NCBI GenBank assembly: GCA_045106985.1
Contig: JBGCFQ010000020.1
Coordinates: 138,429 to 202,428 of the forward strand
Source of the DNA: Pseudomonadales bacterium
Lineage (GTDB): Bacteria > Pseudomonadota > Gammaproteobacteria > Pseudomonadales > JAUIET01
DNA length: 64,000 nt
Reading direction: 5' to 3'
The stretch's first letter is position 1. Every line of letters starts with the position of its first letter. Below are positions 21,685-35,540 of this stretch, piece by piece. Both the position numbers and the translations under genes were made by a program. The notes beneath the pieces are model-generated. The model was given only the letters and a program-made list of their open reading frames with translations. It searched no databases and had not been told where the DNA came from.

Positions 21685-21710
21685 ATTTGCTGACATAGTA
21701 TTCAGCAAAT
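21685..21710. promoter_or_regulatory. 9-bp perfect inverted repeat (operator or intrinsic terminator)
   Basis: ATTTGCTGA-catagtat-TCAGCAAAT lies between the sulfatase stop (21767) and the SDR start (21656). On the minus strand the stem is followed by TTTTAT. Confidence 0.4.
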
Positions 21711-21766: not shown

Positions 21767-23314
21767 TTAACGACCTTGCGCTCCTTTTGCCAGCATCTGT
21801 TGCATTTGAATCATCATGCGATCGATAGAGAAACTCGCTGTGGCCTGACGCGGCGGAAACTGTCGAAAAGTTGAAAGCCATTTACCGACCTCTTGCTGGG
21901 TTGGCACAAACAACCACAGCTGGTCTGCGAAGAATCGAGAATACATACCGGAATCTATAGAGGTCTCATAAGGGTCAGAACGAAGATTGATAACCCTTGG
22001 AAAGTTGAGAGCCTCGCGTGGACCAGACCAACCCTCCATTTGTAGCGCGAAATGGATTTTCCAATCATTCCAACGTACTGCATTCAATTGAGCATTGTCG
22101 TCAAAGTAAAACAAGGTTTCCCGCTTACCTTTGCCTTTGCCCGACAGCAGCGCTGTTTGATCGAAGCCATCCAAATGCACCTTATATGTCTTGCTGCCTG
22201 CAGCGTAGCCCTGCTTTAGCTTAGCGCCAATATTGGGCTCTCCGGCGGCCGCCAGAAAAGTAGGCAACCAGTCCTGATGAGAGAAAATATCATTTATAAC
22301 AGTTTTCTCTGCAACCATACCAGGCCAACGAATAAGTGCTGGCACGCGAAAGCCACCTTCCCAGGTGGATCCTTTCTCACCTCGAAACGGCTCTGCACCG
22401 CCATCGGGGTAGGTATTCGTTTGCGATCCGTTGTCTGTAGAGTAAACAACAATAGTGTTGTCTGCGATACCCAACTCTTCTAACTTGTCGAGCAGCTGAC
22501 CAACATGATGATCGTGTTCCTTCATACCATCAGCATACAATCCATGGCCAGAGCTGCCCTGCCACTTAGGTGCGAGCCGTGTCCAAACATGCATACGCGT
22601 CGAATTAAACCAAAGAAAAAACGGCTTGTCTTCGCTCTTGGACTTATCCATGAATTTCAGAGCAGCATCAGTGAATTCCTGATCTGCAGTTTCCATGCGT
22701 TTACGGCTAAGTGGCCCGGTGTCTTCAATTCGGCCATCAGCATAAGAATGAATAACCCCTCGTGGCGCGAATTTTTTGTGGAATTCAGGATCTTTCGGAT
22801 AGTAGTAAGTTTCTGGCTCCTCTTCCGCATTTAAGTGATAGAGGTTGCCAAAAAATTCATCGAAGCCATGGTTGCTAGGTAAAAATTCATCTTTATCGCC
22901 CAGATGATTTTTACCGAATTGCCCCGTAGCGTAGCCTTTCGGTTTAAGTAACTCTGCAATAGTTGGATCTTCACCGCGAAGGCCAATATCAGCACCAGGT
23001 AGGCCTACTTTGAGTAGGCCTGTTCGTAAAGGGTGTTGCCCAGTGATAAATGCGCTGCGCCCAGCCGTGCAACTTTGCTCGCCGTAGTAGTCAGTAAACA
23101 TTGCGCCTTCGTTAGCAATGCGGTCTATGTTGGGGGTTTCTCCGCCAAGCATGCCGCGATGATAGGCGCTGATATTAGACCAACCAATATCGTCGCCCCA
23201 TATCACCAAAATGTTTGGCTTCTCAGCCGCGGTTACCACAAGCGGCGAGAGCCCAAAAAAGACACTCACTAACAATATAACACTGGTCCGCGAAAACGCT
23301 GCTTGTCTCTTCAT
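21767..23314 (-). CDS. Arylsulfatase-family (S1) sulfatase, secreted
   Basis: The ORF extends to 23359. The ATG at 23314 gives a signal peptide (MKRQAAFSRTSVILLVSVFFGLSPLVVTAAEKPN). The metal-site sequence is ILVIWGDDIGW, and the formylglycine motif is the CxAxR variant (SCTAGRSAFITG). Confidence 0.88.
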   Translation of the reverse strand: MKRQAAFSRTSVILLVSVFFGLSPLVVTAAEKPNILVIWGDDIGWSNISAYHRGMLGGETPNIDRIANEGAMFTDYYGEQSCTAGRSAFITGQHPLRTGLLKVGLPGADIGLRGEDPTIAELLKPKGYATGQFGKNHLGDKDEFLPSNHGFDEFFGNLYHLNAEEEPETYYYPKDPEFHKKFAPRGVIHSYADGRIEDTGPLSRKRMETADQEFTDAALKFMDKSKSEDKPFFLWFNSTRMHVWTRLAPKWQGSSGHGLYADGMKEHDHHVGQLLDKLEELGIADNTIVVYSTDNGSQTNTYPDGGAEPFRGEKGSTWEGGFRVPALIRWPGMVAEKTVINDIFSHQDWLPTFLAAAGEPNIGAKLKQGYAAGSKTYKVHLDGFDQTALLSGKGKGKRETLFYFDDNAQLNAVRWNDWKIHFALQMEGWSGPREALNFPRVINLRSDPYETSIDSGMYSRFFADQLWLFVPTQQEVGKWLSTFRQFPPRQATASFSIDRMMIQMQQMLAKGAQGR

Positions 23315-23370
23315 TGATTTTGCCTTCACTAGTTTGCTTTTACACTTTTCTATAAACATTTAACTGAAAG

Positions 23371-24528
23371 TCAGAGCGAGCGAGATATAAGTTCTTTCAT
23401 AATCTCATTTGTTCCGCCGTAAATTTTTTGTACACGACTGTCCGCGTACATTCGAGCAATCGGGTACTCCCACATATAGCCATAGCCACCATGCAGCTGC
23501 AAGCACTCGTCGACAACATCGCACTGCTTTTGTGTGCACCACCATTTTGCCATCGACGCTTCTTCAGGCGATAGTTCACCGCTCATATGCTTGGTAATGC
23601 ACTGATCTACGAATGCACGCGAAACGGTCGCCTCTGTCTTGCACTCGGCTAATTTAAATCGCGTGTTCTGGAAATCAAATACAGTTTTACCAAAAGCGCC
23701 GCGTTGCTTAGTGTATTCAACAGTAGTCTCTACGGCCATTTCTGCAATAGTTGCCGCAGCGCAGGCAATACTTAAACGCTCCTGCGGCAACTGTTTCATC
23801 AACTGTATAAAGCCCTGGCCTTCTTTCTCGCCGATTAGGTTATTGAGCGGCAATCTAACATCGCTGAAGAAAAGCTCGGATGTGTCAGCATCTTTCAAAC
23901 CGATCTTTTCCAGATTACGTCCGCGACTAAACCCTTCAAGACCTTCTGTTTCAGCAACAATTAATGATGTACCCTTCGCTCCTGCGCTTGGATCAGTTTT
24001 ACACACAACAATAATCAGTTCAGCATGCTGACCATTAGTGATAAAAGTTTTACTGCCATTAACGAGGTAATGATCATCCTTTTTAATAGCGCTAGTCTTT
24101 ATTCCCTGTAGGTCAGAACCCGCTCCCGGCTCGGTCATCGCAATTGCGGCAACCAATTCGCCGCTGACCATTTTGGGTAACCATCGCAGTTTTTGCTCTT
24201 CTGAGGCATAGTTAATAAAATAGTGCGCAACGATTTGACTGTGCACAGTGTTGCCGCCAGCAACAGAAGCGGCGGCATCGCCTCGCATCATGGCGTCATA
24301 TATGATCGCCTCGTGCGTGTAATCTCCACCTGCACCGCCATATTGCTCTGGAACGCTAGCGCCTAGCAATCCAGCCGCTCCTGCATCGCGCCACGCTTGA
24401 CGATCGCACATTCCTTGCTTTTCCCATCGCTCCCGATGAGGTGCGAACTCAGATTGGGTAAACCTTAAGGCACTGTCGTGCAGTATTCGTAATTCGTCAT
24501 CCACCCAGGCAGAATTCAAAATGCTCAT
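23371..24528 (-). CDS. Acyl-CoA dehydrogenase
   Basis: The ORF extends to 24552 (TTG), and I prefer the ATG at 24528 because it is preceded by AAAGGA. ACAD motifs are AMTEPGAGSDLQGIKT, GSKTFITNG and the C-terminal QLHGGYGYMWEYPIARMYADSRVQKIYGGTNEIMKELI. Confidence 0.9.
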   Translation of the reverse strand: MSILNSAWVDDELRILHDSALRFTQSEFAPHRERWEKQGMCDRQAWRDAGAAGLLGASVPEQYGGAGGDYTHEAIIYDAMMRGDAAASVAGGNTVHSQIVAHYFINYASEEQKLRWLPKMVSGELVAAIAMTEPGAGSDLQGIKTSAIKKDDHYLVNGSKTFITNGQHAELIIVVCKTDPSAGAKGTSLIVAETEGLEGFSRGRNLEKIGLKDADTSELFFSDVRLPLNNLIGEKEGQGFIQLMKQLPQERLSIACAAATIAEMAVETTVEYTKQRGAFGKTVFDFQNTRFKLAECKTEATVSRAFVDQCITKHMSGELSPEEASMAKWWCTQKQCDVVDECLQLHGGYGYMWEYPIARMYADSRVQKIYGGTNEIMKELISRSL

Positions 24529-24556
24529 AGTGATCCTTTTGTTGTTACCCAAATAT

Positions 24557-26956
24557 TTACTGGGCAGGCTGTTGTTGCATATAACTTAGTTGTTTAATCA
24601 AACCCTCCAGACGGCTGTCTCTGGGATTAACGCCGGCAAGAGCCTGCGCATGCTGCATCGCTTTAGCTATGTCGCCACGGTCTCTCTCAATGGTCGCTAA
24701 CGCAAACAACAACTCAACATTGCCGGGATTTTCATCGGCCGTAGCTTCTAGTTGCTTGATTGCCTCTTCGCTTCGGCCAGCGGAATTCAAACCAATTGCA
24801 TATACGTATGCGTATCTCCACGAATCACTGAGCTCAGACGCATGCTGTAATTCTACCAACGCTTGATCCTTATTTCCCTGACGAGAATGCCATAAACCGT
24901 AGGCATGACGGCTCTCGGCAACGTCCGGCTGTCGTTTGATGGCTGTTGCTAATAGAGAGCCTCCCTCGGCATCTCGCTGAATACCACGATATAAGTCTGC
25001 CAAATTCAGATAAGCGGGTATCCAAAGCGGGTCTAGATTTATAGCTCGTCGATAATATTCTTCTGCGCGCGCCGTCTTGCCACGACGAGCAGCAAGAGAG
25101 GCTAAATTACTCAATGCTTCGGGCCTATCGGCATTCAGTTCTTGGGAGTTGATGTATTCGTCAAGTACACCACTTAATAAGCTGCTCTCCTTTTCACTCA
25201 ACAAGCTCGAAGATGCATCGGCAAGTGTACGGGCGGCCTCAATTCTCACCGCAAGGTGTTTGTCCCTTAACAATCGCGATGTCATTTCCCACCGCTGACC
25301 TACTGGTAATAGCTCCACCGATTGCAGCGCAGCCAACTGCATTGCTGGATTGCTTGATGCCAGCCCCAATCTCACATCCTCTAGTGCTTCTACATCTAGC
25401 TGACGAGACATAAACGCCAGTGCGGAGGCTCTGACAATGGGCGCTTGGTCTTTGTCGCTGAACACAGACCGAAGTAACCCGGATGCTGGCTGACCATTTT
25501 GTATAGCAGAAAAAGCTCTCGCGAAATGAGGTTTAGTCTCCCTTCCTGTTATGCCAAAATGCGCCGCTATAGCCTTAGTAGCCCATTGGTTTGATTTATC
25601 TTTGTGACAGTCGGTGCAAACATTGGGTGACCCAACTTCTTCGCTCAGCTCCGGTCGTGGAATACGAAAGCTATGATCGTATCTTTCATCCACGCCCATG
25701 TAGATTTTCGCGGGCATGTGGCACTGCCGACACTGCGCAGCAGCCGATCCTTCAGGGTGGAAATGATGTTCCGTTGAATCATAGCTTTTGGGCTGTAAGC
25801 CGCCAAATTGGTTCGGTGGTGATTGCTGATGACATTGCGTACAGACCGCGTTACCTTCCAGCTTCAGTTCGGCTGAATGAGGATTGTGGCAATTGCTGCA
25901 AACAACACCGGCTTGATGCATTTTGCTTTGTAGAAAAGAACCATAAACATATACCTCTTCCAGAATCTGTCCATCGGCATGGTACAAACCTTGATCCAGT
26001 AATGCAGGCACATAGTGGTCGTACAAGGACTTGCCGGGCTCAAAGCCCTCTGCGATTACGCGGCGTCTTGAATGACATCGTGCGCAACTGGCGAGCTGAA
26101 TGGGAGCCTCGCCAAGACTCGCAGCAAACCCCTTATGGGCGGGCGAACTATCGGGCGTAGAACCCTCGGCATGGCTTGCCCAAGATTGATGTTGTGATGC
26201 CGGGCCGTGACAGGCCTCGCAGCCTACATTTATTTCATTGTATTCAGTGGAGTAAGACGCTGAACTTGCGTCATACCCTTTACGTAAATTTGTAGAGTGA
26301 CAATCAGCGCACTGATAATTCCAGTTTTGATGCAAGCGAGTCCAATGCAAGGGGTCGCTCGCAGGTATCGATTCATCCGGATACATATGAAACCAGCGCT
26401 GTCCGCCATCAGCATCAGGTCTAGAATCCCAGGCCATGCTCAGAGCTTGGTAAGCACCTTTCCCAGTGGGTATGAGGTACTGTTGCAGAGGCTCAACACC
26501 GAAGGCATGACTAATCGGAAATTCTTCCTTTTCGCCAATTTTATTATTGGTTCGAACGAAATAGCTACCATCACGCTGATAGAAGAAAAACTCTTCGCCC
26601 TGATGCGTTACCGTTTGATTATCAAAGTTGCCCAAAACCGTGTCACTGTTCACGGTCTGCATAGCCAATGCATGATGCGACTGCTGCCAAAACTCAAAGG
26701 CTTGTTCGTGGCAACTTTTACAGTTTGCCGAACCAACATACTCTCGCTCTATATTGGTCGTGGGTGCAAAGGTCGACGGTTCTTGTTCACTATTTACCTT
26801 TACCTCTGCTCCGGCATCCGCAACTTTATTTTTTGCATCAACACCTACTTCAACCGGACCACAGGCAGAAACCACAAGCATCAGCAAGGCCAAAAAGGCG
26901 TTCGCAACGACATTTGACGCTTTGCAAATGTGGCAAGCCAACCTGGTCAACATCAA
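24557..26956 (-). CDS. Octaheme c-type cytochrome lipoprotein with a C-terminal HEAT/TPR domain
   Basis: 799-aa ORF with a lipobox-like LVVSAC at the N-terminus. It has eight CxxCH motifs: CKSCH, CADCH, CEACH, CARCH, CSNCH, CTQCH, CRQCH and CTDCH. The C-terminal ~300 aa are TPR-like (YYRRAINLDPLWIPAYLNLADLY...). Confidence 0.8.
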   Translation of the reverse strand: MMLTRLACHICKASNVVANAFLALLMLVVSACGPVEVGVDAKNKVADAGAEVKVNSEQEPSTFAPTTNIEREYVGSANCKSCHEQAFEFWQQSHHALAMQTVNSDTVLGNFDNQTVTHQGEEFFFYQRDGSYFVRTNNKIGEKEEFPISHAFGVEPLQQYLIPTGKGAYQALSMAWDSRPDADGGQRWFHMYPDESIPASDPLHWTRLHQNWNYQCADCHSTNLRKGYDASSASYSTEYNEINVGCEACHGPASQHQSWASHAEGSTPDSSPAHKGFAASLGEAPIQLASCARCHSRRRVIAEGFEPGKSLYDHYVPALLDQGLYHADGQILEEVYVYGSFLQSKMHQAGVVCSNCHNPHSAELKLEGNAVCTQCHQQSPPNQFGGLQPKSYDSTEHHFHPEGSAAAQCRQCHMPAKIYMGVDERYDHSFRIPRPELSEEVGSPNVCTDCHKDKSNQWATKAIAAHFGITGRETKPHFARAFSAIQNGQPASGLLRSVFSDKDQAPIVRASALAFMSRQLDVEALEDVRLGLASSNPAMQLAALQSVELLPVGQRWEMTSRLLRDKHLAVRIEAARTLADASSSLLSEKESSLLSGVLDEYINSQELNADRPEALSNLASLAARRGKTARAEEYYRRAINLDPLWIPAYLNLADLYRGIQRDAEGGSLLATAIKRQPDVAESRHAYGLWHSRQGNKDQALVELQHASELSDSWRYAYVYAIGLNSAGRSEEAIKQLEATADENPGNVELLFALATIERDRGDIAKAMQHAQALAGVNPRDSRLEGLIKQLSYMQQQPAQ

Positions 26957-28482
26957 TTGGTCGGCTTAGGTATGGTCTCCATTATTTGATCAATAGTGAA
27001 ACTTGCGGGTCGCTGTCTTGGAGGAAATGCGTGCAGAGACTTAATGAACTTACTCACCTCGACCATACCTAGACCCATTGCGATTGGAATCTTTCTTGTC
27101 CACCACTCATTGTATGCATTAGAGTCCGTATCGGCACGTTCAAATGGATCGCGACGCAGGTGAAACATTTTCGGTATTCGCAAAGGTATAAATGGTTCAC
27201 GCCAGACTTGAAAACGTTTTGCTCGCTGTTCTGCGTACACGATTTTCCAATCGTCTACTCGCGCAGATATTAGCTTGCCGTCGTCGCTAAAATATAAAAA
27301 CTCTCTGCGTGGGCCCGCTTTCTTTTCCGTTAAATGCGGCAGAAAGTTATAGCCGTCAAGATGTACTTTGAATGACTTAGCGCCGGCTACGTGACCACTG
27401 AGCAACTTCTTCTTGATCGAAGTATCACCAGCCGCAGCCATTAAGGTTGGCACCCAATCTTGATGTGACATGACTGAATTGCTGATGCTTCCTGCCTCAA
27501 TTTTCCCTGGCCATCGAACCATCGCCGGAACTCGGAAGCCCCCTTCCCAGTTGGTATTTTTTTCACCGCGAAATGGCGTTATACCACCGTCAGGCCACAT
27601 ATTGTAATGCGGGCCGTTATCGGTGGTGTAAATAACAATTGTATTCTTGGATATACCCAGCTCATCAAGCTTAGCTAATATGAAGCCAACGTGATCATCG
27701 TGTTCAAGCATGCCATCGGCATAAAAACCCTGTCCTGAACGTCCTAAGCTCTCATCTTTAACGTAAGTATGGTAGTGCATGCGGGTTGAATTGAACCACG
27801 CTAAAAAAGGCTTACCCGCTGAGTGCGCCTTATCTATGAACTTCAATGTTGCGCCAAGAAACTCTTCATCAACTGATTCCATGCGCTTTTTAGTTAGCGG
27901 GCCGCTGTCTTCAATGCGACCGTCGGCATAGCTGTGAATGACGCCTCTCGGGCCGAAGGTTTTATTAAATTCCGGATCTTTGGGATAGTCTGGATCTTCT
28001 GGCGCTTCTTCTGCATTCAAATGATATAAGTTGCCAAAAAATTCATCGAATCCATGATTGGTTGGCAAAAATTCATCCCGATCACCTAAATGATTTTTGC
28101 CAAACTGGCCCGATGTGTAACCCAGTGGTTTCAACAATTCAGCCAATGTTGGGTCTTTGGGACTAAGACCTGTATCGGCACCAGGTGCGCCTACTTTTGT
28201 AAGTCCGGTACGAATTGGGTGTTGGCCTGTAATAAAAGCTGAACGACCAGCGGTGCAGCTTTGTTCGCCGTAATAGTCGGTAAATTTTAGCCCCTCTCTT
28301 GCTATACGATCTATGTTGGGTGTGGAATAACCCATCATACCCATATTGTTAGTACTGAGGTTCCAAAAGCCGATGTCATCGCCCATTATTACAACGATAT
28401 TGGGCTTATCTGCTGCCGACACTTCTGTAACAAGAAGTAAAGTTGCCAGTAAGCCAATGCAGCTTCGAATTATTGTTCTCAT
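26953..28482 (-). CDS. Arylsulfatase-family (S1) sulfatase, secreted (paralog of 21767..23314)
   Basis: 509-aa ORF with a signal peptide, the sequence IVVIMGDDIGFW and the same SCTAGRSAFITGQHP motif. Long blocks are identical to the other sulfatase (GQFGKNHLGD, NHGFDEFFGNLYHLNAEE). Its stop overlaps the cytochrome start as ATGA. Confidence 0.88.
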   Translation of the reverse strand: MRTIIRSCIGLLATLLLVTEVSAADKPNIVVIMGDDIGFWNLSTNNMGMMGYSTPNIDRIAREGLKFTDYYGEQSCTAGRSAFITGQHPIRTGLTKVGAPGADTGLSPKDPTLAELLKPLGYTSGQFGKNHLGDRDEFLPTNHGFDEFFGNLYHLNAEEAPEDPDYPKDPEFNKTFGPRGVIHSYADGRIEDSGPLTKKRMESVDEEFLGATLKFIDKAHSAGKPFLAWFNSTRMHYHTYVKDESLGRSGQGFYADGMLEHDDHVGFILAKLDELGISKNTIVIYTTDNGPHYNMWPDGGITPFRGEKNTNWEGGFRVPAMVRWPGKIEAGSISNSVMSHQDWVPTLMAAAGDTSIKKKLLSGHVAGAKSFKVHLDGYNFLPHLTEKKAGPRREFLYFSDDGKLISARVDDWKIVYAEQRAKRFQVWREPFIPLRIPKMFHLRRDPFERADTDSNAYNEWWTRKIPIAMGLGMVEVSKFIKSLHAFPPRQRPASFTIDQIMETIPKPTN

Positions 28483-28739: not shown

Positions 28740-29708
28740 ATGTCTACTCTGGAAAGCCTGCACAATCTGGAAAATGCCATCAAACAGTCGGTTATCGGCC
28801 AGGATGACGTTGCCCGACAGTTGGTGATTGGCTTGTTGTGCAATGGTAATTTACTGCTTGAAGGCCTGCCTGGAACCGCGAAAACTCGTGCTGTAAAGTC
28901 ATTGGCACGCATATTGGACGTAAGCTTGAGCCGTATTCAATTCACGCCAGACCTACTGCCCTCCGACGTCACTGGTACCGAAGTATTTCATACCGAAGGT
29001 GAGAACAACACTCTACTGTTCCAACCTGGCCCCATTTTTGCCAACCTGGTTCTCGCAGATGAGATAAACCGGGCACCCGCAAAAGTGCAATCGGCCTTGC
29101 TTGAAGCGATGGAAGAGCGCCAAGTCACCGTCGCCGGCAAGAGCTACCCTATGCCAGATTTGTTTATGGTACTAGGCACTCAGAATCCGATAGAGCAAGA
29201 AGGCACATACCCGCTGCCCGAGGCCCAGATGGACCGGTTCTTATTGAAAGTTCTGGTTGACTACCCCAGCGACGACGCCGAGCTTGACGTGATGCGATTG
29301 GTGAGAAGTGAGGAAGGCGAATCTCAGCAGGCCATAAGCGATACCATTTCTAGTGATGAAATATTTGCTGCGCGGCGAGAGCTAAAAGGACTTCATATAG
29401 CGGAGAATATAGAACGTTACATAGTGGCGCTGGTACTGGCCACACGCCACCCTGAGCGTTACACGAACAGCGATCTGCATCACTGGCTTATAGTTGGCTC
29501 CAGCCCGCGCGCCAGTATTGCCTTAGATCGCAGCAGTCGCGCCGTTGCCTGGCTAACTGGCAAAGACTTTGTAGACCCAGACGACGTGCGCAGTGTTGTT
29601 CATCCCGCATTACGCCATAGACTTGCGTTGAGCTATGAGGCAATTGCCGAAGGCATTACTCAAGACGACGTGATCGATGAAATACTTCGCCAAGTTGCTG
29701 TTGCGTAG
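28740..29708 (+). CDS. moxR: MoxR-family AAA+ ATPase
   Basis: 322-aa ORF with Walker A GLPGTAKT, Walker B LADEINRAPAKVQSALLEAMEE and other MoxR/RavA-type motifs. Confidence 0.92.
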   Translation: MSTLESLHNLENAIKQSVIGQDDVARQLVIGLLCNGNLLLEGLPGTAKTRAVKSLARILDVSLSRIQFTPDLLPSDVTGTEVFHTEGENNTLLFQPGPIFANLVLADEINRAPAKVQSALLEAMEERQVTVAGKSYPMPDLFMVLGTQNPIEQEGTYPLPEAQMDRFLLKVLVDYPSDDAELDVMRLVRSEEGESQQAISDTISSDEIFAARRELKGLHIAENIERYIVALVLATRHPERYTNSDLHHWLIVGSSPRASIALDRSSRAVAWLTGKDFVDPDDVRSVVHPALRHRLALSYEAIAEGITQDDVIDEILRQVAVA

Positions 29709-29775
29709 AGTTGCTGCCATACCGTCAGCCCGATTGCTGCGAATTTTGTTCAGACAAAAAATTCGCTAGAGAAGT

Positions 29776-30804
29776 ATGAACCGCGAGAGGTCCGTGAGCA
29801 CAGTGAATAGCAAGCGAGCACACTCGGCACTTTCAGCACCCGCTGAAGACAGCCGCATTTACCTGAGCGCTCGGAAACTAATCGCGCTGCGAGCGCATGC
29901 ACGCGGCTTTGTGCTAAACCCAAGTCAGTTTATCCAAAACCAATACGTTGGTCGCCATCCGTCTAAACAGCGTGGCCGCGGATTAAATTTCGAAGAATTG
30001 AGTCATTACCGAATCGGCGATGACACAAGAACAATGGATTGGAAAGTAACCAACCGCACAGGCAAGCCCCATGTAAGAGTGTACACAGAAGAACGGGAAA
30101 GACCCGTAATGCTTGCCTGTGACCAGCGGGTCGCGATGTTTTTTGGCAGCCAGCACAAAATGAAATCAGTGGTGGCGGCCGAGGTCCTGTCACTGCTGGC
30201 ATGGCGTCAGTTTGCGCTGGGAGATGCCATTGCCTCATTGTTGTTTAACGATACAAACATGCTTGAATTTAGTCCGCAGAGAAGCAGCTCTGCTTTGCTG
30301 GAGGTTTTTCAGCAATTGAGTATCATGAATCGATCTTTGTCGTGCAAAACGGATCCGTTAGATCCGCTAGCCAGCCAAGCGTCTCTGAACAAAGCTTTAC
30401 ATCATCTAATGCGCTTATGCCCAAGAAATAATCTGATAGTGTTGATTTCAGACCTACAAGGTTACAACGACGACTCTGAAACACTCGTTAAAAGCCTTGC
30501 TATACACAACGACGTGTTCGTTCTGCATGCGATCGACGCTGCCGAGAAGGACCTGCCTGCCTCACATTCTTTAATTGCCGGCAATGGCGAGCTGCAGATA
30601 GCCGTAGGGTGCGACGAACCCTCGCTTAGAGACAACTACCGGCTTCAGGCTCAGCAATGGCTTAGTACGCTGGCTGCGCAATTTCGTCGTTCCGGGGTTG
30701 GGTACTATGCACTCAATACTGTGCAAGCCTCTGAGCAGCAACTTAGACAAGCGTTACCAGAAGCGTCTAACGTCGTACGTAAACAACATTCAAGCTTTTC
30801 CTAG
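29776..30804 (+). CDS. DUF58-family protein (MoxR partner)
   Basis: 342-aa ORF containing YRIGDDTRTMDWKVTNRTGKPHVRVYTEERE, the canonical DUF58 core. It is the second gene of the MoxR operon. Confidence 0.85.
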   Translation: MNRERSVSTVNSKRAHSALSAPAEDSRIYLSARKLIALRAHARGFVLNPSQFIQNQYVGRHPSKQRGRGLNFEELSHYRIGDDTRTMDWKVTNRTGKPHVRVYTEERERPVMLACDQRVAMFFGSQHKMKSVVAAEVLSLLAWRQFALGDAIASLLFNDTNMLEFSPQRSSSALLEVFQQLSIMNRSLSCKTDPLDPLASQASLNKALHHLMRLCPRNNLIVLISDLQGYNDDSETLVKSLAIHNDVFVLHAIDAAEKDLPASHSLIAGNGELQIAVGCDEPSLRDNYRLQAQQWLSTLAAQFRRSGVGYYALNTVQASEQQLRQALPEASNVVRKQHSSFS

Positions 30805-30850
30805 CGGTGCTCTCTTGTAAACTGGGAGATAGAATTGTGAGCGCTACTTC

Positions 30851-31396
30851 ATGAAAGCCGAGCTAAATTCCGAAGCAATAATAGATGCCACCTTCGGTAA
30901 CTACACCGTGCACGGCATTGAAGAGATAGTGTTTGCACAAGCTGTCTCTTGGATGCCAAGCACGATGGCGTGGAAGATACTTGGCCTGCTTTTACTGGTC
31001 GCTATTGGCTTCGCTCTGATGCAGTATGTGAAACATTGGCAAAGTAATGCTTATCGAAGAGCGGCTCTGCAGCAGTTAAAGGAGATACGAGCAGCCGCAT
31101 TACGGACCGATACCTCATCGAATGAGGCCTTGCTTAAGCTGCCAACACTGATGAAGGCAACCGCACTTCAAGCCTACCCGCGTGAGCAAGTAGCGTCGTT
31201 GAGCGGAGAAGGATGGCTTAAATTTCTAGATAGTTGCTACCAAGGTAAAGCTTTTAGCTCCGATGGTGGGCAGGCCTTACTGGCTTTGTCGTATCAAACC
31301 CCTGCACATTGGCCGGCGAGCAAAGCACAAACCGAAGAGCTGCTCACCTTATGTCATCGTTGGTTAGTTCAGCACAGGAAAGCCTCCGATGCTTGA
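30851..31396 (+). CDS. DUF4381-like single-TM protein
   Basis: 181-aa ORF with one TM segment followed by NAYRRAALQQLKEI. This is the usual third gene of Bat-type operons. Confidence 0.65.
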   Translation: MKAELNSEAIIDATFGNYTVHGIEEIVFAQAVSWMPSTMAWKILGLLLLVAIGFALMQYVKHWQSNAYRRAALQQLKEIRAAALRTDTSSNEALLKLPTLMKATALQAYPREQVASLSGEGWLKFLDSCYQGKAFSSDGGQALLALSYQTPAHWPASKAQTEELLTLCHRWLVQHRKASDA

Positions 31397-32393
31397 GCTA
31401 GCTTACCCTTGGGCCTTTATATTATTGCCTTTGCCCTGGTTGGCCGCACGGCTTTTGCCTGTCTATAAAGAATCACGAAGTGCTTTGCGTGTGCCTTTCT
31501 TTGAGACACTGGTCCACTTGTCTAACCACAGCGCTGGCACTGGCGCGGTATTGCTGCACCGCTCCTGGATAGAACGAATTTGGCAGATACTCGCCTGGAT
31601 GTTACTTGTTACCGCGCTGGCGTCACCGTATTGGCTTGGCGAGCCAATTGAACGAACCAAGTCAGCGCGCGATTTAATGGTTGCTGTCGATCTATCGGGC
31701 TCGATGCAAACCAAAGACTTTCACCTCACAACAGATACCAGCAAAAAGGTTAACCGCTTAGCAGCAGTAAGGTCTGTGCTCCACGAATTTGCCGAGCAAC
31801 GACAGCATGATCGCCTGGGTTTGATCGTATTTGGCGATGCCGCTTTTCTTCAGGCGCCGTTTACCGAAGACCATCGTGCTTGGCTGGTATTACTCGAGGA
31901 GACCCAGATTGGTATGGCCGGCCAAAGTACAATGTTTGGCGACGCCATTGGCCTGGCCATTAAATTGTTTGAAAACAGCGACAGTGAAAATCGCGTTTTA
32001 ATTATGCTAACCGATGGCAATGATACGGGCAGCAAAGTTCCGCCTGTTGAGGCAGCCAAAGTTGCTGCCAGCAAAGGCCTACGTATCTATACGATTGCTA
32101 TTGGCAATCCGCTGACGGTTGGCGAAGAGGCTTTAGACCTGGAGGTATTGCAACGAATAGCTGAAATCACTGGAGGCAACTTTTACCAAGCGCTGGATCG
32201 AACGCAGTTGGACGCGGCGTATCAGGCGATTACAGAGCTTGAGCCGGAGCTTTTCGAAACCTTGAGCTTTAGACCCCGACATAGCTTGTTGCATTGGCCT
32301 CTTGGTGCTGCTTTTGTTGGCCAACTGCTGCTTTTACTCGTGTTGCTTGTTTGCAGACTACGTCGATACCACAAAGTTGTTAAGTCGCTATGA
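31389..32393 (+). CDS. batA: VWA-domain membrane protein (BatA-like)
   Basis: 334-aa ORF with N- and C-terminal TM segments and a VWA MIDAS motif (VAVDLSGSM). It overlaps both neighbouring genes. Confidence 0.85.
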   Translation: MLELAYPWAFILLPLPWLAARLLPVYKESRSALRVPFFETLVHLSNHSAGTGAVLLHRSWIERIWQILAWMLLVTALASPYWLGEPIERTKSARDLMVAVDLSGSMQTKDFHLTTDTSKKVNRLAAVRSVLHEFAEQRQHDRLGLIVFGDAAFLQAPFTEDHRAWLVLLEETQIGMAGQSTMFGDAIGLAIKLFENSDSENRVLIMLTDGNDTGSKVPPVEAAKVAASKGLRIYTIAIGNPLTVGEEALDLEVLQRIAEITGGNFYQALDRTQLDAAYQAITELEPELFETLSFRPRHSLLHWPLGAAFVGQLLLLLVLLVCRLRRYHKVVKSL

Positions 32394-34129
32394 ACGCCGA
32401 GCAGCTCTTCGAGAATTTCCACCTCATACGGCCCTGGTTCTTGCTGGCGATACCCATTGTTGCCGCGCTCTGGTTCACACTTTGGAAAATGGACAAACAA
32501 AGCACTGCAGAACCTACCATTGTCGCGCCGCATCTTGCCAGCGCTCTACTAATGCCTGCAGGCAATAAAGGTTGGCTAACCCCATTGACCTGCATGCACC
32601 TACTAGCCGGCTTTTTAGCGCTGGCCTTATCAGGTCCTACCTGGGAAAGGCAATCCTCACCACTTATTGAAGATGAAGCGATCTTGATTATCGCTTTGGA
32701 TTTGTCTCAATCCATGCAGCAAGCAGACGTTCAACCTAGCCGTGTTGAGCGAGCCAAACAAAAGATTCAGGACTTGTTAGCACTGCGTGCGGGCGCTAGA
32801 AGCGGACTGATTGCTTATGCAGGCAGCGCTCACAGCGTTATACCGATCACTAGCGACCTGGACATTGTGCAAAATTTTCTAAGCGCAATACGTCCCGACA
32901 TGATGCCCCGGTCAGGAAAGCTGGCCGCAAAAGTACTGCCAGTTGTAGACTCCATGTTTTCTCAAACAGTGGGCGGCAGAAAGGATATACCAGGAACGTT
33001 ATTGCTTATAACTGACAACGCAGATTCTGCAACACAGGAAGCTTTTTCCACATTCTTTCAACAAAGTAAGCACCAGCTAGTTGTTTGGGGTGTTGGCACA
33101 ACTGACTTCACCGACTCAAGCAATGCTCAAGTACCTGCGAACTTTATTGCACAAGATGAAGCGGCACTAAAGGAACTGGCATCAAACAGCGACGGCTTCT
33201 ATCAGGCTTTTTCGACAGACAAGAGCGACGTGCGCCGGATCAACTGGCAAATAGATAATTATTTGCTCACCGTTGACGATAACGATCATCCCTGGGTTGA
33301 TAAAGGCTACGTGCTGTTACTGCCCATTATGCTGCTTTGTCTTCTATGGTTTCGCCGTGGCTGGACGGTTCAGTACTTGCTAGTACTGGCCACTTTGTCC
33401 ATAGGTTCCACAGCGTTCAGTCCAATCTCATTGGCAAACGACAAACAGCAAGTAGCTATACAAGACCCTACAGAGATTTTGCAATCAACGACTGGCCCCT
33501 TACTAACTGAGCCTTCTTTAGCTCAGCGCTTTGTCAGCCTATGGTTCACAGCAGACCAAAGAGCGCGCTTCTATTTTGAACGTGGCCACTATCACCTTGC
33601 AGCCGAGCTTTTCGAAGTACCTATGTGGCGTGGCATTGCTTATTATCTGGCTGAAGATTTTGCTAATGCAGCCGATGCATTTTCTCTAATTGAAACTAGC
33701 GACGGTTGGTTCAATCTTGGCAATGCCTGGGCGCATGGGCAGCATTATCTTAAGGCAGTTTCGGCTTACGATGAAGTACTACGCCGCAGGCCAGACCACC
33801 CGGGAGCGGTGAAAAACCGGGCGCTTATTCAAAAATTAATTGATGACATTAATCGCATGAGCGAGAGCCAGCAAGCCGAGCCAGGCGAATCATCACGAGA
33901 GCTTGGTTCAGAACCACAGCGAGCGGATGGTGCCGAGCAGCAGCAATGGGGCGTAAATGAGCAAGAACAATTTAATGCAGAACAATTATTAACGGACGAG
34001 CGCATTCAGCAACAATGGATGAAACAGGTACAACAAGACCCTGCACGCTTTCTGTCGATCAAATTTCAGATGCAGCTGTATCAAAGCGGATCCCCTATCA
34101 ATAGCCAGGTTCGGCCCGATGAAAACTAA
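32390..34129 (+). CDS. batB: VWA-TPR membrane protein (BatB/BatC-like fusion)
   Basis: 579-aa ORF with a MIDAS motif (IALDLSQSM), TM segments, TPR repeats (FNLGNAWAHGQHYLKAVSAYDEVLRRRPDHPGA) and a Gln/Glu-rich tail. Confidence 0.8.
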   Translation: MNAEQLFENFHLIRPWFLLAIPIVAALWFTLWKMDKQSTAEPTIVAPHLASALLMPAGNKGWLTPLTCMHLLAGFLALALSGPTWERQSSPLIEDEAILIIALDLSQSMQQADVQPSRVERAKQKIQDLLALRAGARSGLIAYAGSAHSVIPITSDLDIVQNFLSAIRPDMMPRSGKLAAKVLPVVDSMFSQTVGGRKDIPGTLLLITDNADSATQEAFSTFFQQSKHQLVVWGVGTTDFTDSSNAQVPANFIAQDEAALKELASNSDGFYQAFSTDKSDVRRINWQIDNYLLTVDDNDHPWVDKGYVLLLPIMLLCLLWFRRGWTVQYLLVLATLSIGSTAFSPISLANDKQQVAIQDPTEILQSTTGPLLTEPSLAQRFVSLWFTADQRARFYFERGHYHLAAELFEVPMWRGIAYYLAEDFANAADAFSLIETSDGWFNLGNAWAHGQHYLKAVSAYDEVLRRRPDHPGAVKNRALIQKLIDDINRMSESQQAEPGESSRELGSEPQRADGAEQQQWGVNEQEQFNAEQLLTDERIQQQWMKQVQQDPARFLSIKFQMQLYQSGSPINSQVRPDEN

Positions 34130-35540
34130 ACACTTTCACTGGTTTTACTTGAGCAGTTTGCTTCTCTTGCAATTAGTATCGCCAGCATTTGTGACAGCGC
34201 AGAACAGTCTCCCTGAACTGGAACAGCCCGCGAACGATGTTATAAGCATTAAACAATTGCTGGCAACAGATCAGCTTAGAGTTAAAACCTGGCTGCAGCC
34301 GGCGGATAACATTGTTGCTCGCCAGCAACTTGAGCTAAACATAGAAATCTCAACGGCCAGCTTTTTTAGCGGAGGCACTCGTATCGCTCGTTTCGAAATG
34401 AACAATGCGATTGTATTGCGCCGTAATAAGTTTGCGGTTAATTCATCTCGGCGCGAGGCCGGAACCACCTGGTCGGTGCAGTTGTGGACGATAACTATAT
34501 ACCCACAGCGTGGTGGCGAGTTTGTGATTCCCTCGTTGGCTATAAATATTTCTATTGCTGACAGTAACGGCCAGCCAATCGAGGGGCAGACCAGTACCGA
34601 CGCATTAACCTTTAACGCGACAGTACCCGAGTCTCTTAAAACAACGGCATTGAACGACTGGGTTGCTAGCAGCCAATTTTCTGTTAAGGAACACTTTGAC
34701 CGCCCACTTGATCAGCTGAAAGCGGGTGACGCAGTGCGCCGAACTATCAGTATTGAAGCCGAGAATCTCGCCGCGATGATGCTACCTTCAGTATCCTCTG
34801 CGCCTCAAGCTGGCTTGGCCTCTTATCAAAACCCCGCTAGATTAGAAGATCGTGTAAACCGCGGCAATTACCAGGCTATGCGCTTTGAATCGATAAGCTA
34901 TGTTGTTGAAGCAGAGGGTAACTACACGCTACCAGAGCTTGTTTTCTCATGGTGGAATACTGACAGCAACGAGCTCCAGTATGTCCGTCTACCCTCACAT
35001 CAACTTAGCGCTTCTGCATCCACTTTTGCAACAACACTCGACGATGAATCTGTTCGGGCACACTCAGTTTGGTATTTGCTGGCTGCCATATCTCTTCTTA
35101 TCACACTGCTTGTTTTTACCTTCAAAAGAAATCTTTGGAGTTTTCCTGAGCCTCTTAGACAACAATGGATGCAACAATGGGGAAAGCGTGCCTTGTCGTC
35201 CCAAGAGAGAATCTTGCGGCAGCAAATGCTAACAGCGCATGCGCGCGGAGATTCTCAACAAGCTGTTGTGCGACTGTATCAATGGCTATCTGTCGCCTCG
35301 CAGCTTGCCAGCGAGCCTTGCCCTGGGGCGCTTCGTCCGCTATTAACTGGCGCAGAGCACACTTCGTTGCTTGATGCTGTTAACCAACTTATGAACAGCG
35401 CTTATGGAGAAAGCCAGCCGCAAGGGCCCGATAAGTCTGCCTTTGAGAAACTTATCGTCCAACTGCAGGCTGATCTGTCAGGATCTAACATTAGCAGGCA
35501 GACAGCGACAGGCGTAAACCTTTCCGTCCTCAATCCTTAA
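34119..35540 (+). CDS. batD: BatD-like (oxygen-tolerance family) protein
   Basis: 473-aa ORF with a signal peptide, a beta-rich ectodomain and a late TM segment (WYLLAAISLLITLLVFTF). It is the last gene of the operon. Confidence 0.7.
   Translation: MKTKHFHWFYLSSLLLLQLVSPAFVTAQNSLPELEQPANDVISIKQLLATDQLRVKTWLQPADNIVARQQLELNIEISTASFFSGGTRIARFEMNNAIVLRRNKFAVNSSRREAGTTWSVQLWTITIYPQRGGEFVIPSLAINISIADSNGQPIEGQTSTDALTFNATVPESLKTTALNDWVASSQFSVKEHFDRPLDQLKAGDAVRRTISIEAENLAAMMLPSVSSAPQAGLASYQNPARLEDRVNRGNYQAMRFESISYVVEAEGNYTLPELVFSWWNTDSNELQYVRLPSHQLSASASTFATTLDDESVRAHSVWYLLAAISLLITLLVFTFKRNLWSFPEPLRQQWMQQWGKRALSSQERILRQQMLTAHARGDSQQAVVRLYQWLSVASQLASEPCPGALRPLLTGAEHTSLLDAVNQLMNSAYGESQPQGPDKSAFEKLIVQLQADLSGSNISRQTATGVNLSVLNP

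Follow-up and report, generated by a model that had tools for sequence, protein, structure and literature searches.

Recurrent pairing of exported S1 sulfatases with an octaheme cytochrome-HEAT/TPR lipoprotein

Exported sulfatases of the S1 (formylglycine-type) family and a large family of multiheme cytochromes appear to form a recurrent two-gene unit in several bacterial lineages. We describe this unit in a 64,000-nucleotide stretch of DNA from a Pseudomonadales bacterium (the window; contig positions 138429-202428, in a 4.75-Mb assembly that is 96.75% complete and is labelled G000 here). As judged by comparing gene neighborhoods, the conserved unit consists of the gene for an exported Cys-type sulfatase with a CTAGR motif (sulfA) and the gene for an octaheme c-type cytochrome fused to a HEAT/TPR repeat region and predicted to be a lipoprotein; members of this genus add a second, paralogous sulfatase (sulfB) to the module. 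A functional link between the two is supported because their adjacency recurs, because sister species retain the overlap between the sulfatase stop and the cytochrome start, and because their co-occurrence exceeds expectation; we put the probability of a functional partnership at about one half.

The turnover of sulfated polysaccharides, mucins and many small molecules is under the control of sulfatases, enzymes that have no activity before one of their cysteine or serine residues has been converted to formylglycine. To our knowledge only two types of maturase exist, the formylglycine-generating enzyme (FGE) and the anaerobic sulfatase-maturating enzyme (anSME); work on Escherichia coli aslB and ydeM from about 2007 is said to have given evidence for a further bacterial maturation route, and in E. 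coli the maturation of Cys-type sulfatases follows an unidentified route that does not involve the cytochrome described here. The cytochrome family, which is large, conserved, unstudied and repeatedly found beside sulfatases, including in genomes with one sulfatase and no known maturase, is a candidate for a missing sulfatase-activation route.

Recurrence of the sulfatase-cytochrome pair

The genes of the module and the sulfatase motifs lie in the window as follows:

26953-28482, minus strand: sulfA, exported S1 (formylglycine-type) sulfatase, 509 amino acids (aa); PF00884 E=1.6e-52
28243-28257, minus strand: CTAGR motif of sulfA, residues 76-80 (Cys76), read from the sequence
24557-26953, minus strand: octaheme c-type cytochrome and HEAT/TPR lipoprotein, 798 aa; matches Pfam cytochrome and TPR families
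21767-23314 (or to 23359 with an upstream ATG), minus strand: sulfB, exported S1 sulfatase paralogue, 515 or 530 aa; PF00884 E=3.9e-57
23057-23071, minus strand: CTAGR motif of sulfB (Cys97), read from the sequence

The sulfA and cytochrome genes share one base: the minus strand reads TTGATG at 26956-26951, with the stop codon TGA at 26955-26953 and the start codon ATG at 26953-26951, so that the overlap is TGATG rather than the ATGA given in the first-pass annotation, a small correction. The pair is kept in four of the five sister species of the same genus (G402-G405), G401 lacking the adjacency. In these species the cytochromes are 58-61% identical to that of the window, the same sulfatase (84-87% identical) lies directly upstream, and sulfatase stop and cytochrome start overlap or abut. 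The sulfB orthologues are 88% identical and occupy the same position, with only a remnant in L012, and a MoxR-DUF58-DUF4381-VWA-VWA-BatD operon runs divergently on the other side.

Sulfatases of the CTAGR clade adjoin the cytochrome in five lineages, namely this genus (G402-G405), Photobacterium, Microbulbifer, and the gammaproteobacterial genomes G028 and G086. In Photobacterium, where the cytochrome is 38% identical, a sulfatase on the minus strand, a sulfatase on the plus strand, the cytochrome and the MoxR operon stand together, and the sulfatases, 60% identical to sulfA/sulfB, carry CTAGR; in Microbulbifer sp. ALW1 the MoxR operon is divergent from the cytochrome, with a CTAGR sulfatase, 48-50% identical, on the cytochrome's opposite flank. 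G028 (99% complete) and G086 (100%) encode a single PF00884 protein each, whose gene lies 1-2.5 kb from the cytochrome; the chance of the sole sulfatase-family gene adjoining the cytochrome is about 0.2-0.3% for each genome. Sulfatases of other clades adjoin the cytochrome in Xanthocytophaga (Bacteroidota), G212 and G329. In a sample of relatives, sulfatase-family genes adjoin it in G419, G427 and G430, lie about 7 kb away in G412, and were not found adjacent in G401, in any of the three genomes of the sister genus (G406-G408), or in G418, G420 and G429. Beyond this genus, the pairing is seen in roughly one in four to one in three lineages.

Statistical support comes from a class sample of 400 gammaproteobacterial species genomes, in which the cytochrome is present in 27 and the sulfA clade in 19, the window's genome counted. 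With that genome left out, the two co-occur in 10 of 399 genomes, compared with about 1.2 expected (Fisher p = 7e-9). Twenty cytochrome loci were drawn from this sample for a neighborhood check, and four of them have a sulfatase within three genes (L020 with CAPSR, L025 with CTPSR, L026 and L027 with CTAGR), against a background of about 1.5-3% (binomial p = 2e-4 to 3e-3). In a maximum-likelihood cytochrome tree, members with an adjacent sulfatase are spread over the branches; well-supported branches force three or more changes of state, and the parsimony count is seven. No cytochrome-positive genome without a sulfatase-family gene was found among the 32 checked, a count that is little informative given how common PF00884 is.

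Three other genes were seen repeatedly in these neighborhoods. Next to the pair, G028 and G086 share a conserved protein of 266-275 aa that matches nothing in Pfam or NCBIfam (L026:15227-16051, minus strand; L027:9836-10633, plus strand). A DUF1254/DUF1214 protein is encoded directly beside CTAGR-clade sulfatases in G086 (L027:10650-12077) and twice in G234 (L048:5077-6585, L050:5018-6544). A 560-620-aa PF01663 protein of the phosphodiesterase/alkaline-phosphatase superfamily recurs (L031:1356-3209, L036:324-1997, L044:3746-5446, L003:19945-21636), placed directly upstream of the cytochrome in G258, directly downstream of CTAGR sulfatases in G014 and G027, and within the Photobacterium island.

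The proteins of the pair and the surrounding genes

Both the lipoprotein signal and the two large domains of the cytochrome can be placed on its gene:

26861-26953, minus strand: lipoprotein signal peptide MLTRLACHICKASNVVANAFLALLMLVVSAC, ending LVVSAC with lipobox Cys31; helix at residues 14-28 in the AlphaFold2 model
25544-26752, minus strand: heme domain, residues ~68-470, with hemes at C78, C215, C245, C290, C352, C371, C408 and C446
24572-25522, minus strand: HEAT-like and TPR solenoid, residues ~478-794 (~320 aa); Pfam TPR_2, TPR_14, TPR_19 and related at 598-790

This architecture agrees with the first-pass annotation, which had noted a lipobox, eight CxxCH motifs and a long HEAT/TPR region. 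LVVSAC fits the bacterial-lipoprotein lipobox pattern [LVI][ASTVI][GAS]C at Cys31, from which lipidation is predicted, and the N-terminal Cys is kept in the consensus of the cytochrome family (A1). All eight CxxCH motifs are invariant among 50 homologues, as are several further His and Met residues. The protein matches Cytochrome_C7, C554, c3_2 and Paired_CXXCH together with many TPR families in Pfam/NCBIfam. The full-length AlphaFold2 model (predicted local distance difference test score, pLDDT, 87; predicted template modelling score 0.86) places a low-confidence linker of about 40 residues after the lipobox (pLDDT <50 at residues 32-67), a beta-rich insert at residues 98-189, after heme 1 and before heme 2, and a solenoid at 478-794 that consists entirely of helices, with about 16 helix pairs and pLDDT >90.

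A profile search with the heme domain gave matches to OcwA (6I5B, E=3e-23), OmhA (6QVM, 1.8e-10), c554 (3e-6), MccA (2.6e-4) and NrfA (7.8e-4), by which the domain is assigned to the NrfA/c554/MccA/OcwA lineage of catalytic multiheme enzymes. A Foldseek search with the full-length model gave TPR proteins as its sole matches, and a model of the heme domain only, built from 10 sequences, reached pLDDT 37.6 and was not used; the fold relationship of the heme domain therefore rests on the profile search. The C-terminal three-helix bundle typical of this lineage is replaced by the HEAT/TPR solenoid. OcwA has been classed in the NrfA/c554/MccA lineage, with open distal sites at hemes 2 and 5; heme 2 is the open catalytic site in both MccA and OcwA, which have an extra beta-sheet domain in common, and OcwA reduces nitrite and hydroxylamine (PMC6703420). 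The cytochrome family is very large, with 8000 of 8000 scored candidates matching, and includes Pseudomonadales, Microbulbifer, Marinihelvus and Methylomirabilales among the matches listed. Within the genus the heme domain is 67-68% identical to that of sister species, against 58-61% for the whole cytochrome. As a separate observation, the cytochrome has diverged far more within the genus (58-61%) than the flanking sulfatases (84-88%) or MoxR (71-75%), the solenoid being less kept than the heme domain (24557-28482 compared with L007-L012).

SulfA and sulfB are 58% identical over 499 aa, both cover the full PF00884 profile, and both carry predicted Sec-type signal peptides, with sulfA cleaved near VSA/AD; that they are paralogues sharing a CTAGR motif, as first annotated, is thus borne out. 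The S1 signature, (C/S)-x-(P/A)-x-R followed by xxxx(T/S)G near the N-terminus, is present in both as CTAGRSAFITGQ. G000 contains 16 sulfatase-like ORFs (open reading frames), 14 of them with CxPxR, and only the two that flank the cytochrome carry CTAGR. Across the sulfA clade CTAGR is invariant wherever a pattern scan could read the motif, with or without an adjacent cytochrome. The best solved relative of sulfA is 7AJ0 (199 bits, residues 20-462), the fucoidan sulfatase PsFucS1, which has been assigned to subfamily S1_13 (PMC8484680).

Further features of the window surround the pair:

23371-24528, minus strand: acyl-CoA dehydrogenase (ACAD), predicted cytoplasmic, 385 aa from its ATG; Pfam Acyl-CoA_dh_N, _M and _1
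21685-21710, no strand assigned: 26-nt near-perfect palindrome ATTTGCTGACATAGTATTCAGCAAAT, between the sulfB stop and a downstream short-chain dehydrogenase/reductase (SDR) gene
28740-35540, plus strand: MoxR-DUF58-DUF4381-VWA-VWA/TPR-BatD (Bat-like) operon, divergent from sulfA; Pfam AAA_3, bpMoxR

Six-frame ORFs and reads of the sequence agree that sulfA, the cytochrome, ACAD and sulfB are four tightly packed genes running in one direction on the minus strand, as first described. The distances given then also stand: 28 nt separate the cytochrome stop from the ACAD ATG, which is preceded by AAGGA, and the ACAD stop lies 56 nt from the signal-peptide ATG of sulfB, or 11 nt from its first ATG; the ATG at 23314, which begins the signal peptide, is the likely start of sulfB. 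We found no terminator-like site in the minus-strand intergenic stretches of the four-gene block, and the palindrome at 21685-21710 may be a bidirectional terminator or operator that marks its 3' end.

The MoxR/VWA Bat-like operon stands beside the pair, in varying orientation, in three lineages: this genus, Photobacterium (L003-L006) and Microbulbifer (L087). It is absent from the 20 sampled cytochrome loci, including the four with a sulfatase. For Bat-like operons, this recurrence may offer a first clue to function.

A possible route of sulfatase activation and its alternatives

Sulfatases with CxAxR have been assigned to anSME and those with CxPxR to FGE (PMC2459300). Neither enzyme is encoded in the window, as the first-pass annotation had stated, and the observation extends to the whole genome and genus, with no canonical FGE or anSME found anywhere in the assembly. 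PF03781 is matched in G000 by two proteins only, an EgtB-EgtD fusion and a PEGA-domain protein of 720 aa whose FGE fold lacks the catalytic Cys pair, and a tblastn search with a canonical FGE gave no further candidate; no anSME scores above the TIGR03942 cut-off (349 bits; positive control Photobacterium L004, 484.6 bits) in G000 or its genus. The cytochrome itself has no PF03781 match, and the FGE fold with GGS[FY]xCxxxxC was not found in it. G000 and the five sister species contain 9-20 PF00884 genes each, PF03781 being limited to the Cys-less PEGA/FGE-fold protein and EgtB, and none has anSME; because the sister species show the same picture, the absence of maturases is not an assembly gap. 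G028 and G086 likewise have no PF03781 or TIGR03942 match at E <= 1e-20. In G249, which lacks the cytochrome, a canonical secreted FGE (signal peptide, GGSFLCTDQYCxRY) is encoded beside each of two CTAGR sulfatases. PF03781 matches occur in all 8 cytochrome-less genomes with a sulfA-clade sulfatase, and canonical FGE is lacking in 5 of 11 cytochrome-positive genomes, four without any PF03781 match and G000 with the Cys-less protein and EgtB only; in most of the other genomes, PF03781 matches were counted without a check of the Cys pair.

The two FGE-fold proteins of G000 deserve description in their own right. One, a membrane protein of 720 aa (contig C17:147806-148582; L013:127-2289), has PEGA-like repeats and, at its C-terminus, a GldK/PvdO-like FGE fold without the Cys pair; it is kept in all six genomes of the genus and, apart from EgtB, is their only FGE-fold protein. 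The other, of 773 aa, joins two enzymes of ergothioneine synthesis, EgtB and EgtD, in one polypeptide (contig C16:53542-54258; L014:217-2538, minus strand). In Photobacterium, a LysR gene closes the block together with two further genes, one for a Cys-less FGE-fold lipoprotein in which VRGSSFSYDAKESQNYRRD replaces the Cys pair (L004:19871-20665, minus strand) and one for an anSME (L004:20855-22069, plus strand); because of these two, the sulfatase-cytochrome-Bat block there is bracketed by sulfatase-related genes.

If the partnership is real, sulfatase and cytochrome, both exported by Sec, would meet in the periplasm, where the HEAT/TPR solenoid of the lipid-anchored cytochrome would bind either the sulfatase or an N-terminal segment of it that has not yet folded, while the heme domain performed or relayed a redox step required by the sulfatase. 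The most likely step would be one in which the motif cysteine is oxidised to formylglycine and the electrons pass down the heme chain, with no need for FGE or radical-SAM chemistry; we consider it doubtful that the cytochrome acts as a formylglycine maturase. Put most boldly, the cytochrome would be a formylglycine-generating system of a third kind: its solenoid would capture the motif segment of Sec-exported Cys-type sulfatases before folding, the cysteine would be oxidised at an open heme, and the electrons would travel via the heme chain to the respiratory chain; with heme as the site of oxidation, O2/Cu chemistry as in FGE would be unnecessary, as would radical SAM. The MoxR/VWA Bat-like operon might help to assemble the complex. 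The proposal of a third kind of system is tentative and unlikely; if true, it would explain how sulfatases are activated in this genus, G028 and G086 without FGE or anSME. A role in redox activation fits the periplasmic location of both proteins, the peptide-binding type of solenoid and the catalytic heme lineage, and it fits the lack of maturases in the genus, G028 and G086 and the presence of FGE in the neighbor position in G249.

Several observations weigh against a partnership of this kind, and against a general or exclusive maturase in particular. About 70-75% of cytochrome loci outside the genus have no nearby sulfatase, and the adjacency is missing from G401 and from the whole sister genus. 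The cytochrome is absent from 8 of the 18 genomes with a sulfA-clade sulfatase, so that the sulfatase is not generally dependent on it. The complementarity between cytochrome and FGE is weak (p = 0.04) and derives in part from genomes that are 62-67% complete. Photobacterium has a true anSME (484.6 bits) in the same island and G329 also has one, so that the cytochrome is not simply a substitute. The E. coli route means that the lack of FGE and anSME does not point to this cytochrome specifically, and the invariant His and Met residues are numerous enough for possible full six-coordination of all hemes. Two narrower proposals were discarded. A strict either/or between the cytochrome and the known maturases is only weakly seen and is contradicted by Photobacterium and G329; a CxAxR-specific maturase does not agree with a CTAGR motif that is fixed across its clade regardless of the cytochrome, nor with the CxPxR sulfatases (CTPSR, CAPSR, CAPTR) that also adjoin cytochromes.

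It is possible, at well below even odds, that the genes are merely co-located: the cytochrome would serve the periplasm broadly as a redox enzyme or electron carrier, for instance in detoxification or reduction of small N or S compounds, or would be a redox arm of the MoxR/VWA Bat system, with sulfatases nearby through shared regulation or niche, such as a life on particles and sulfated polymers at low oxygen. The size of the family speaks for this account, as do lineages such as Methylomirabilales (L086) and Pseudoxanthomonas (L001) in which no sulfatase is adjacent, the 16 of 20 sampled loci without a nearby sulfatase, the MoxR/Bat operon adjacent in three lineages, and the reduction of nitrite and hydroxylamine by OcwA. 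It does not readily accommodate the translational coupling to sulfA kept within the genus, the placement of the sole sulfatase-family gene of G028 and G086 beside the cytochrome, or an adjacency that recurs in varied gene orders in at least five or six lineages. Another reading is a pure scaffold, in which the solenoid tethers secreted sulfatases to the membrane or to an envelope complex and the hemes are unrelated or structural. We consider such a scaffold quite unlikely. The predicted lipoprotein anchor, a large solenoid that is modelled with confidence, and the two sulfatases that flank the cytochrome in this genus and in most Photobacterium loci would suit it; however, the heme domain is better conserved than the protein as a whole, and invariance of eight heme motifs and several His and Met residues is unexpected in a passive tether.

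The four-gene block was read in the first-pass annotation as an operon acting on a sulfated lipid, sterol or alkyl compound, in which desulfation and oxidation of the product by the cytochrome would be followed by degradation of the acyl chain by ACAD. Consistent with such a catabolic unit, the genes are co-directional with short gaps and no internal terminator-like site, the neighborhood includes SDR and CoA-related genes, and in sister species, too, ACAD, enoyl-CoA hydratase and CoA-transferase genes are found near the pair. Yet in four of the five sister species the interval between cytochrome and sulfB holds two ACAD genes that are on the opposite strand and about 27% identical to the ACAD of the window, and because of this ACAD does not belong to a conserved transcription unit. 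No ACAD lies near the pair in the Photobacterium, Microbulbifer, G028 or G086 versions, and ACAD has no signal peptide, whereas the other three proteins are predicted to be periplasmic. The sulfatase-cytochrome adjacency, whose loss in relatives had been named in the first-pass annotation as a refuting result, is conserved and recurs in separate lineages, whereas the gene content and orientation of the four-gene unit are not conserved in relatives, ACAD being swapped or absent; ACAD was accordingly rejected as a member of the module, the proposed substrate has no comparative support, and the catabolic unit is highly improbable. By this comparison, the ACAD and SDR genes are bystanders in a fatty-acid/CoA neighborhood, and a misleading reading is removed in that ACAD and a sulfated-lipid pathway fall outside the unit.

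A search of the literature library found no paper combining sulfatase, multiheme cytochrome and tetratricopeptide, in keeping with the initial remark that a sulfatase joined to a multiheme redox protein is not a described arrangement. New here are a lack of known maturases throughout a genus rich in sulfatases, the genomes G028 and G086 with their single sulfatase, the case of G249 with FGE in place of the cytochrome, the MoxR/Bat operon as a recurrent third partner in three lineages, and the bystander status of ACAD. Should the maturase idea prove wrong, the pairing would still be a first functional handle on the cytochrome family, and possibly on Bat/MoxR-VWA operons.

Comparison with known systems

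In sulfatase-maturase operons such as Klebsiella atsBA, with its radical-SAM anSME, and the FGE loci of G249, the sulfatase gene directly adjoins the gene of a redox protein, as it does here, and in G249 FGE fills the neighbor position beside the same CTAGR clade. The neighbor in the window differs in being a periplasmic octaheme c-type cytochrome lipoprotein, with no FGE fold and no radical-SAM domain, whose role as a maturase is hypothetical. PsFucS1 (7AJ0) resembles sulfA in having a non-proline signature, CTSSR, although the similarity between the two is distant.

The closest known counterpart of the heme domain is OcwA of Thermincola potens (6I5B), the profile match to which spans several heme motifs; the beta-rich insert after heme 1 also has its counterpart in OcwA and MccA. 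OcwA differs in having nine hemes rather than eight and a C-terminal three-helix bundle where the present protein, a predicted Gram-negative lipoprotein, has a 320-aa solenoid, and it serves an electron-transfer chain to minerals, whereas the genomic partner here is a sulfatase. With respect to Bat (Bacteroides aerotolerance)/MoxR-VWA operons, the complete MoxR-DUF58-DUF4381-VWA-VWA/TPR-BatD set stands beside the pair; in contrast, the described Bat operon contains neither cytochrome nor sulfatase, and most cytochrome loci lack the Bat set.

MauG acts on pre-methylamine dehydrogenase, a case in which a periplasmic c-heme enzyme oxidatively makes a cofactor from residues of another exported enzyme. 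The two proteins are not homologous (no di-heme peroxidase family appears in the Pfam scan), their heme numbers differ, and MauG produces tryptophan tryptophylquinone, whereas conversion of Cys to formylglycine is proposed here; even so, MauG is the nearest precedent for the proposed mechanism.

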